DNA of 64,000 nucleotides from Oscillospiraceae bacterium (lineage in GTDB: Bacteria; Bacillota; Clostridia; Oscillospirales; Acutalibacteraceae), in contig SVQH01000007.1 in the NCBI GenBank assembly GCA_015065425.1, positions 39,038-103,037 on the forward strand. Direction: 5' to 3'. The notes beneath the pieces are model-generated. The model was given only the letters and a program-made list of their open reading frames with translations, did not search any database and was not told the DNA's origin. The translations under genes and the position numbers were made by a program. Below are positions 9,185 to 10,096 of the stretch, one piece after another. How positions within the stretch are numbered: the stretch's first letter is position 1; each line of letters begins with the position of its first letter.

Positions 9185-9213
9185 TTGAAGTCCATAAAAC
9201 TTAAATTTAAAAT
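9185..9213 (+). promoter_or_regulatory. candidate sigma-A promoter of mini-protein array A
   Basis: TTGAAG, 17-nt spacer, TAAAAT, inside a 270-nt AT-rich non-coding gap. It lies about 79 nt upstream of the first ATG. Confidence 0.4.
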
Positions 9214-9291
9214 TTCTCTTGTGTTGTTTTTTTGATTATGATATGATGATACTGAATTAATACCCAATTTTTGAAAGGAAGGTGCTAATAA

Positions 9292-9468
9292 ATGGAAGGT
9301 CCCATCTTAGGTATTTCTGTAGAACAGATCCTTGATTTTATTGAAAAATTACTCGGTGCAATCAAGAAAATGTTTGCTTGGCTCGGCATTCTCGTTCTCC
9401 CCGAGGACGGCGAATATGACGGTTATCCCACAGAATCCGCAACAGATGATCCTGTTGTAGGTGCATAA
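9292..9468 (+). CDS. mini-protein A1, 58 aa, acidic amphipathic helix peptide (MEGPILGISVEQILDFIEKLLGAIKKMFAWLGILVLPEDGEYDGYPTESATDDPVVGA)
   Basis: Hand-translated; below the 60-aa cutoff of the ORF track. GGAAGGTG lies 7 nt before the ATG. It is the first of four tandem paralogues and has 11 acidic and 3 basic residues. Confidence 0.6.
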   Translation: MEGPILGISVEQILDFIEKLLGAIKKMFAWLGILVLPEDGEYDGYPTESATDDPVVGA

Positions 9469-9498
9469 TCATTTAATAAAACAGAAGAGGTGAAAATT

Positions 9499-9648
9499 AT
9501 GATTATAGATTTCTCTTTCTCCATTGACGATTGGATGGCTCTTTTTCAGCGTTTAATTGATATTATCGTTAATTTCTTTGACAAGCTCGGCATCAAGCTT
9601 TTTGCTGATGAAGAAACAACTGCTCCCGAAGAAGAAACTACTGCATGA
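9499..9648 (+). CDS. mini-protein A2, 49 aa (MIIDFSFSIDDWMALFQRLIDIIVNFFDKLGIKLFADEETTAPEEETTA)
   Basis: AGAGGTG lies 6 nt before the ATG. The product has an amphipathic N-terminal helix, a KLG hinge and an acidic ETT tail, and is paralogous to A1, A3, A4 and B1-B4. Confidence 0.65.
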   Translation: MIIDFSFSIDDWMALFQRLIDIIVNFFDKLGIKLFADEETTAPEEETTA

Positions 9649-9705
9649 TTCAAAAAAATCATTTTATGGTTTTTTATATCTCATTAAAGAAAAGAGGTGT
9701 ACTAC

Positions 9706-9858
9706 ATGGAAGATTTGATAAAGGCTTTTATCGATTTCCTTACTGATTTCTTTGCAGCTCTTGCAGAATTCCTCGGCGGTGAATTCGTTTTCGGCGATAT
9801 TCTCGGCGATATCGGTGATGCTCTCGGCGGCGAAGAAACAACAGCTGCAAACGAATAA
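9706..9858 (+). CDS. mini-protein A3, 50 aa (MEDLIKAFIDFLTDFFAALAEFLGGEFVFGDILGDIGDALGGEETTAANE)
   Basis: AGAGGTG lies 6 nt before the ATG. The product has 12 acidic and 1 basic residue. The antisense 101-aa ORF in the track (9740..10045) has no RBS and is judged a shadow ORF. Confidence 0.65.
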   Translation: MEDLIKAFIDFLTDFFAALAEFLGGEFVFGDILGDIGDALGGEETTAANE

Positions 9859-9896
9859 TTTTGCAGAAATGAAACTTTATTTGCGAGGTGAAAATA

Positions 9897-10031
9897 ATGT
9901 CAGGATTTGATTTTACAGCTCTCCTTAAGTTCCTTGGTGCTCTTTTTGATGCATTCATGAAGCTTTTCGCTAAGCTCGGTTTTGATCTCGGCGGTGAAGA
10001 GGCTACTGAAGCTCCTTCAGCAGAACAGTAA
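9897..10031 (+). CDS. mini-protein A4, 44 aa (MSGFDFTALLKFLGALFDAFMKLFAKLGFDLGGEEATEAPSAEQ)
   Basis: GCGAGGTG lies 6 nt before the ATG. A terminator follows 30 nt after the stop. Confidence 0.65.
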   Translation: MSGFDFTALLKFLGALFDAFMKLFAKLGFDLGGEEATEAPSAEQ

Positions 10032-10061
10032 GAAAATAGTTGCATAATATATTATGTAAAG

Positions 10062-10096
10062 AAAAACCGACGGTATATGCCGTCGGTTTTCTTTTA
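10062..10096. terminator. bidirectional rho-independent terminator shared by array A (+) and htrA-like gene (-)
   Basis: aaaaccgacgg-tatatg-ccgtcggtttt, with A- and T-runs on either side. Confidence 0.8.

Follow-up and report, generated by a model that had tools for sequence, protein, structure and literature searches.

A conserved four-gene operon for leaderless acidic amphipathic mini-proteins, and a second array of the same design, in ruminant-gut Clostridia

This report deals with Array A, a group of four very small genes in a 64,000-nucleotide stretch of DNA from an Oscillospiraceae bacterium (contig SVQH01000007.1, positions 39,038 to 103,037). The whole stretch is referred to below as the window, and coordinates are those of the window unless a contig is named. 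Comparison with related loci has shown that positions 9219-10090 make up an autonomous, conserved four-cistron operon with its own predicted promoter, four strong Shine-Dalgarno (SD) sites and a predicted terminator. It has also shown that the four mini-proteins, A1 to A4, are inherited as a fixed set in one uncultured clade of ruminant-gut Acutalibacteraceae/Oscillospiraceae. To judge from its signals the operon is probably strongly expressed. It is proposed, tentatively and at a little under even chances, that A1-A4 co-assemble via Phe-rich amphipathic helices into an anionic hetero-oligomer.

The four genes and their conservation

The features of the Array A region are as follows.

9029-9063, plus strand: terminator of the amino-acid ATP-binding cassette (ABC) importer operon, a 14-bp stem and then a T-run
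9157-9182 (wider ~9152-9187), plus strand: upstream block TTRCA-N6-TGTTATnnRTGTAAA, containing the palindrome CACAATTGTG
9185-9213, plus strand: candidate promoter TTGAAG-17-TAAAAT, not supported
9219-9247, plus strand: predicted sigma-A-type promoter, -35 TTGTGT, 17-nt spacer, extended -10 TGaTATGAT
9292-9468, plus strand: A1, 58 aa, net charge -8; helix at about residues 9-35 ending FAWLGILVLP
9499-9648, plus strand: A2, 49 aa, net charge -8; IDFSxSIxDW, helix to NFFxKLGIKLF, tail ADEETTAPEEETTA
9706-9858, plus strand: A3, 50 aa, net charge -11; helix MEDLIKAFIDFLTDFFAALAEFLGG, a second short helix, tail GGEETTAANE
9897-10031, plus strand: A4, 44 aa, net charge -4; helix MS(G/S)FDFTALLKFLGxLFDAFxxLFxKLGF, acidic tail
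10063-10090, plus strand: terminator hairpin ending the cassette, a 12-bp stem and then a T-rich tail

All four open reading frames (ORFs) begin with ATG. The SD sequence of A1, GGAAGGTG, lies 7 nt before its start codon, and those of A2 (AGAGGTG), A3 (AGAGGTG) and A4 (GCGAGGTG) lie at a distance of 6 nt. Consecutive genes are separated by 30, 57 and 38 nt, and none of the four products contains Cys. Coordinates, SD spacings, gene spacers, charges and the lack of Cys had been given in a preliminary description of this DNA, and all were reproduced. That description also called the genes unannotated, which is not the case: the exact peptides are on public record as 'hypothetical protein' from a Clostridia metagenome-assembled genome (MAG; MBR3598041/40/39), and A4 has gene calls. 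The tail of A1 is a conserved acidic PEDGEYD(G)YP...DDPxxGA. The sole ORF of at least 60 aa in the Array A region runs antisense to A3 and A4 (9740-10045, minus strand, 101 aa). It is absent from public gene calls and is regarded as a by-product of the coding strand.

The sequences support the view that A1-A4 are paralogues connected through A4. When A4 was compared with all six frames of the window, its best matches other than itself were A3 (E 2e-4), A2 (2e-3) and A1 (0.07). The mutual paralogy claimed earlier is supported by way of A4; the direct similarity of A1 and A3 was not significant in this search.

Among 5.8 billion proteins a profile search picked out 93 clusters (90% identity), all of 39-73 aa, which sort into four orthologue groups, each with its own conserved signature. 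When one genome per GTDB species was scanned, the A4 family was found in 21 species. All of these are MAGs labelled Acutalibacteraceae, Oscillospiraceae, Ruminococcaceae, Ruminococcus or Clostridia, and where the record names a host the source is goat or water deer gut. Hidden Markov models (HMMs) of the four groups matched four consecutive frames on one strand, in the complete order A1-A2-A3-A4, in all 21 species and in additional metagenome contigs. The full set is also present in the more distant contigs L007, L029, L032 and L034, and L031, whose contig boundary cuts through A1, has the end of that gene together with A2-A4. In each of the 23 distinct loci none of the four frames is disrupted, a GAGGTG-like SD lies 5-9 nt before every start, and no gene of the set was found to be lost, duplicated or out of order. 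A fifth gene of this design, 'A0' (36-41 aa), precedes A1 in some lineages (L007:7614-7739 and L032:5077-5187); it is absent from the window.

Ratios of nonsynonymous to synonymous substitution (dN/dS; pooled pairwise, Nei-Gojobori) in the N-terminal helical cores are 0.21 for A1, 0.14 for A2, 0.28 for A3 and 0.16 for A4, and those of the tails are 0.17, 0.37, 0.85 and 0.58, respectively. The third codon position is the most variable; in A1, for example, the differences at positions 1, 2 and 3 are 0.29, 0.17 and 0.53. Several gene-calling sources place the same ATG starts. A search of Array A against Rfam gave no match on the coding part and only sub-threshold terminator-like matches, at the hairpin of 10063-10090.

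Two non-coding readings were weighed, namely that the ORFs arose by chance and that the region specifies a structured non-coding RNA. In their favour, the ORFs are short and lack annotated homologues. Both readings were rejected because reading frames and SD sites persist in every locus, dN/dS lies well under 1, third positions carry an excess of the differences and Rfam has no match on the coding part. The matching ATG calls also stand against them, and the probability that remains to them is negligible. By these comparative measures the ORFs of Array A are genuine genes under purifying selection. The preliminary description, which had taken them to be coding, is borne out by core dN/dS values of 0.14-0.28 and by frames and SD sites conserved across the 23 loci. 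Of the signs to the contrary that it had named, no frameshifts or stops were encountered in the orthologues, and Rfam gave no structured RNA on the coding part.

Control signals and a second array

The ORF of the upstream ABC ATPase ends at 9021, and the terminator at 9029-9063 separates the importer operon from the Array A cassette. At the other end the hairpin at 10063-10090 is common to the cassette and to the convergent HtrA gene (10105-11499, minus strand). Terminators on both flanks had been described before, and terminator-like hairpins were found at both positions.

The 180 nt 5' of A1 were aligned for the 23 loci. A TTGnnn-17-TGnTAnnAT pattern is located at -70 to -74 from the A1 ATG in 22 of the 23, and it corresponds to the predicted promoter at 9219-9247. 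This promoter matches the -35 consensus at just 3 of 6 positions, which is why a simple consensus scan missed it; it is called here because of its TGn extension and its conservation across loci. Transcription is predicted to start near 9254, which would give a 5' untranslated region of ~35-40 nt. The promoter first put forward for these genes, TTGAAG-17-TAAAAT at 9185-9213, could not be upheld. It matches the consensus at 9 of 12 positions, as do nine others in 1.4 kb, its hexamers lie in a stretch that varies among the 23 loci, and the conserved promoter is found 35 nt further downstream. The core TGTTATnnRTGTAAA of the block at 9157-9182 lies at about -122 to -125 from the A1 ATG in 20 of the 23 loci. 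This block probably serves as an operator, as an activator site or as a second promoter.

A second set of genes of this kind, Array B, came to light in a scan of the window for small ORFs that have an SD and lie outside long genes. Its features are as follows.

56245-57069 (wider region to 57150), plus strand: Array B, with upstream block, promoter and four genes
56245-56270, plus strand: upstream block, same motif as at 9157-9182
56297-56325, plus strand: predicted extended -10 promoter, same two-block layout as in Array A
56389-56505, plus strand: B1, 38 aa, net charge -5
56556-56690, plus strand: B2, 44 aa, net charge -3
56747-56866, plus strand: B3, 39 aa, net charge -7
56923-57069, plus strand: B4, 48 aa, net charge -6

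Array B has the SD context and the helix and acidic tail design of Array A and its own terminator. Other MAGs of the clade have it too, with all four genes, flanked by YchF and Methyltransf_21. Sequence similarity between the two arrays is marginal; B4 scores 10.3 bits against the A1 model, and 200 shuffles gave at most 4.9. The pattern TTRCA-N6-TGTTATnnRTGTAAA, which was derived from the two upstream blocks themselves, has exactly two matches in the 64 kb, one 5' of each array, even with 2 mismatches. The claim of a shared block has independent support because each site is conserved across species. In the fetched loci all block matches sit 5' of A- or B-type arrays. The shared block is likely to be the binding site of a regulator, and Array B together with the common block suggests a co-regulated system.

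Protein design and possible co-assembly

Each product consists of a Phe/Leu/Ile-rich amphipathic helix of ~23-30 residues followed by an acidic E/D/T/A/P-rich tail of varying length. The helices usually end in (F/L)xKLG(I/F) and have hydrophobic residues at heptad a/d/e/g-like positions. The A4 helix is almost invariant across species and the A4 acidic tail is variable. The maximum hydrophobic moment is 0.53-0.64 at a mean hydrophobicity of 0.21-0.42, which is also the range computed for the phenol-soluble modulin (PSM) PSM-alpha3 and for delta-toxin. No transmembrane or signal-like segment was detected in the four products: the best 19-residue Kyte-Doolittle window reaches 1.14-1.47 with 3-5 charged residues, and the longest uncharged run is 6-11 aa. 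These values agree with the leaderless design of amphipathic helix and acidic tail set out in the preliminary description. The 92 orthologues of the 23 loci are 39-62 aa long and carry net charges of -1 to -13, and none of them contains Cys. Core charges, counted from sequence, are about -1, -2, -8 and 0 for A1 to A4, which is compatible with charge complementarity among the four. A type IV prepilin motif was considered for A4 and rejected on inspection, as G-FDFTA has no Glu at +5.

E/T-rich acidic segments stand after a signal peptide, lipobox or membrane anchor in 29 of 32 cases counted in neighbouring proteins, from ~5 protein families, and the composition of the mini-protein tails is that of the extracytoplasmic linkers in the lipoproteins and HtrA of this lineage. 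This linker-like composition is a weak hint that the tails may be extracytoplasmic. Thr-rich acidic linkers of the EETTA/DETTE type occur in two lipoproteins of the window (5816-6286 and 6596-7456, after the lipobox) and in HtrA (10105-11499, after the anchor).

Why would a clade keep four such proteins together? Obligate co-assembly is proposed because all four genes are strictly retained and ordered, the helix surfaces are near-invariant and the hydrophobic faces are wide. The autonomy of the cassette, the amphipathic helices, the complementary core charges, the linker-like tails and Array B with its shared block also count in favour. A1-A4 would be made together, and the wide hydrophobic faces of their helices would join into a hetero-oligomeric bundle with a stoichiometry of 1:1:1:1 or a multiple of it. 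Such a bundle would bury the greasy faces and show a brush of acidic tails, and Lys clusters in A1 and A4 may be the partners of the very acidic A3 core (-8). Without needing a signal peptide to get there, the complex would sit at the envelope or in the extracellular space, as an abundant anionic assembly that is surface-active or forms a coat. It would be functionally analogous, and not homologous, to PSMs or multi-peptide leaderless bacteriocins, with the charge inverted.

AlphaFold2 (AF2) was run without alignments on artificial head-to-tail fusions of the peptides. The Array A fusion (predicted local distance difference test, pLDDT, 45; predicted template modelling score, pTM, 0.32) has one main helix per peptide, with a shorter second helix in A3, and coil tails, and the Array B fusion (pLDDT 57, pTM 0.43) has four helices of 29-31 residues. 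Helices and coil tails of this kind are in line with the proposed design, and the low confidence of both models counts against it. In Foldseek the Array B model came closest to designed helical bundles, with TM reaching 0.58-0.61 and a non-significant E > 1, and the support that the fusion models may give to bundling is at most weak. Further points against the proposal are that no exporter is consistently linked to the cassette across the examined contexts and that the extracytoplasmic-linker argument rests on few independent protein families. Part of the constancy in gene order could also stem from how narrow the clade is phylogenetically. Acidic polar faces should be repelled by anionic bacterial membranes, and acidic amphipathic helices bind such membranes poorly. 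This repulsion argues against a simple membrane-lytic role and would be compatible with an intracellular one.

A wider reading is that the two arrays represent a novel class of obligate four-component anionic leaderless complexes, with at least two paralogous operons per genome, a shared operator, a function as a secreted or envelope 'anionic surfactant or coat' and an export route of their own. They would be the charge-inverted counterpart of PSMs and multi-peptide bacteriocins. Taken as a whole this is rather unlikely. Proteins of less than 60 aa are systematically missed or left as 'hypothetical', and the two conserved four-gene sets, both apparently expressed at a high level, show a design rule, namely a Phe-rich amphipathic helix with an acidic tail, a four-part set and a shared putative operator. 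If the products co-assemble or are exported, leaderless amphipathic systems would extend to anionic, obligately heteromeric complexes in anaerobic gut Clostridia, and co-assembly, if true, would make them a compact hetero-oligomeric helical bundle of natural origin. Should they be intracellular instead, they would still be a new lineage-specific small-protein module with a tractable, predicted regulator site.

Known systems, neighbourhoods and alternative explanations

Small amphipathic-helix proteins with acidic tails in general resemble the Array A products in architecture only, with the helix at the N-terminus and a disordered acidic C-terminus, and there is no homology or shared context. 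More specific points of comparison are offered by PSMs, which are amphipathic helical peptides of 20-25 aa (alpha) or 34-45 aa (beta) secreted via Pmt (PMC7825627). Like psm-alpha, with its four genes, and psm-beta, Array A is a tandem operon whose products lack a signal peptide and have one amphipathic helix each with a similar moment. The size of the beta-type PSMs is like that of A4 (44 aa), and strong expression signals, in Array A sequence signals, are common to both. Unlike PSMs, Array A products have long acidic disordered tails and a strongly negative charge, and there is no sequence relationship. They fall into four non-interchangeable orthologue groups in an invariant order, they belong to Clostridia, a different phylum-level lineage, and in a comparison of the loci themselves no transporter of the Pmt type, through which PSMs leave the cell as N-formyl-Met peptides, is consistently adjacent.

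Aureocin A70 (AurA-D), garvicin KS and the cereucins are sets of 3-4 tandem small leaderless peptides that are conserved as a set and act together (PMC6131525). Their loci adjoin conserved genetic determinants, and secretion and immunity genes have been confirmed for aureocin A70 (PMC6131525). Array A resembles aureocin A70 and garvicin KS in its four tandem leaderless genes with individual SDs, conserved as a set. The multi-peptide leaderless bacteriocins have 27-34 aa, a pI of ~10-11 and a net charge of +2 to +5 (PMC6131525, Table 2), whereas the Array A products have 39-62 aa and a net charge of -1 to -13, show no homology to them, and have no transporter or immunity gene consistently linked. 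Array A may be described as an operon for leaderless amphipathic mini-proteins, placed near PSMs, aureocin A70 and garvicin KS by analogy only.

The cassette is found in at least six different gene neighbourhoods. In 19 of the 23 loci, and likewise in the distant L029, it lies 3' of a polar-amino-acid ABC importer (SBP_bac_3/BPD_transp_1/ABC_tran), from which it is separated by the terminator and by its own predicted promoter. Other contexts are as follows.

L007: between a GH95 gene and a flavoprotein gene
L026: another setting, without the importer
L027 and L028: adjoining glycogen genes
L032: after a PHP-domain gene
L034: between HlyIII and a DedA-type gene

HtrA adjoins the cassette in just 5 of the 23 loci; a functional link to it was rejected for this reason and the neighbour is incidental. 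No conserved immunity or modification gene was found near the cassette across the examined contexts, and no ATP-grasp, radical-SAM or LanM-like enzyme of ribosomally synthesised and post-translationally modified peptides (RiPPs) lies within 6-10 kb in any distinct context. The earlier remark that no dedicated exporter, immunity or modification gene is adjacent applies, then, beyond the window, none being conserved across the different neighbourhoods.

Instead of forming one complex, A1-A4 may be independent secreted peptides resembling PSMs or leaderless bacteriocins (surfactant, cytolysin, antimicrobial or biofilm amyloid) and partly redundant paralogues. Tandem small leaderless genes, helices with a hydrophobic moment in the PSM range, strong promoter and SD sites and tails like extracellular linkers are all in line with this, and PSMs (PMC7825627), aureocin A70 and garvicin KS (PMC6131525) provide precedents. 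However, no locus shows loss, duplication or reordering, unlike redundant toxin arrays, and the near-invariant A4 helix suggests a specific partner and not generic lipid binding. The net charge of -1 to -13 contrasts with +2 to +7 in leaderless bacteriocins (PMC6131525), no conserved transporter or immunity gene is nearby, and there is no Pfam or NCBIfam match to PSM or bacteriocin families. Independent peptides are considered unlikely on this balance, and obligate co-assembly, which corresponds to the 'self-assembling' option of the preliminary description, fits the fixed set better than redundant PSM-like toxins do. Slightly more doubtful again is an intracellular role, regulatory or chaperone-like, in which the helices would dock on the inner membrane face or on a partner and the tails would mimic polyanions or nucleic acids or serve as solubilising brushes. 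It would account for the lack of a signal peptide, transmembrane segment or linked exporter; tails that are acidic and disordered, and helices that are highly conserved, would suit a specific partner protein, and the operator-like conserved block suggests regulated expression. Yet E/T/A-rich acidic segments of this lineage are otherwise found in extracytoplasmic linkers, no conserved partner gene is nearby, and the poor binding of acidic amphipathic helices to anionic membranes, a matter of general biophysics, speaks against docking on the membrane.

The position of the cassette directly 3' of the importer in 19 of 23 loci and in L029 raises the question of whether A1-A4 are accessory subunits or regulators of that importer. 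This is improbable, as a strong terminator and a conserved promoter of its own stand in between, the cassette occurs without the transporter in L007, L026, L027/L028, L032 and L034, Array B adjoins YchF and a methyltransferase instead, and broadly conserved flanking synteny fits simple inheritance. It is comparably improbable that A1-A4 are RiPP precursors in which the N-terminal helix is a leader and the Thr/Glu/Asp-rich C-terminus is a modified core, for example with graspetide-like cross-links. Tails rich in Thr and Glu/Asp could in principle form graspetide-type ester cross-links, and the N-terminus is conserved and the C-terminus variable, with tail dN/dS of 0.37-0.85 in A2-A4. This contrast of core and tail is equally explained by a structured helix with a disordered linker, however, and the A1 tail is itself conserved (0.17). 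Cys is absent, the different contexts have no linked ATP-grasp, radical-SAM RiPP enzyme, protease or exporter, and the tails vary in length and resemble the generic linker composition of the lineage. The supposed leaders are also far more hydrophobic than would be expected of leaders, and their conservation as four distinct types is far stronger.

By sequence the mini-protein family is without a described relative. Pfam, NCBIfam, PHROGs and PADLOC gave nothing meaningful for the four peptides. An hmmscan of Pfam-A at E <= 10 gave no match to PSM-alpha, PSM-beta (Staph_haemo) or delta-lysin, and the same was true of NCBIfam. Profile searches of the PDB returned chance matches only (E > 0.4), and no relative was found in phage contigs (IMG/VR). 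The peptide motifs were in no full-text paper found, and a keyword search led only to general reviews of antimicrobial peptides and bacteriocins. An A4-profile HMMER search of 1.84 billion representatives gave 18 matches, 16 of which are mini-proteins of the same design. The other two (P0097 and P0098) are a 4745-aa spidroin-like repeat protein, which reached its score through 24 summed weak stretches (KVFLGALYSGIVQSAAKYGI) and was treated as spurious, and a 92-aa protein in which the A4 helix is joined to sequence of another kind, a fusion that probably stems from a frameshift or an assembly error.

Some neighbours of the cassette in other loci may be mentioned. In many loci a convergent gene for a small Cys-rich protein, CPFF...CEG...C, lies 3' of the cassette (L005:8205-9718, L029:6209-8151 and L032:6186-7264), and it is followed by an HTH_26/Xre regulator and a ~70-aa HExxH protein (ImmA/IrrE-like). 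By tblastn this trio is absent from the window. In L027 a giant repeat protein of more than 1793 aa is encoded convergent to the cassette (6746-12124, minus strand). Its C-terminus, ...IPFWQKIIEFFKQIINFFKNMFK, is, perhaps by coincidence, an F-rich amphipathic helix that recalls the mini-proteins.

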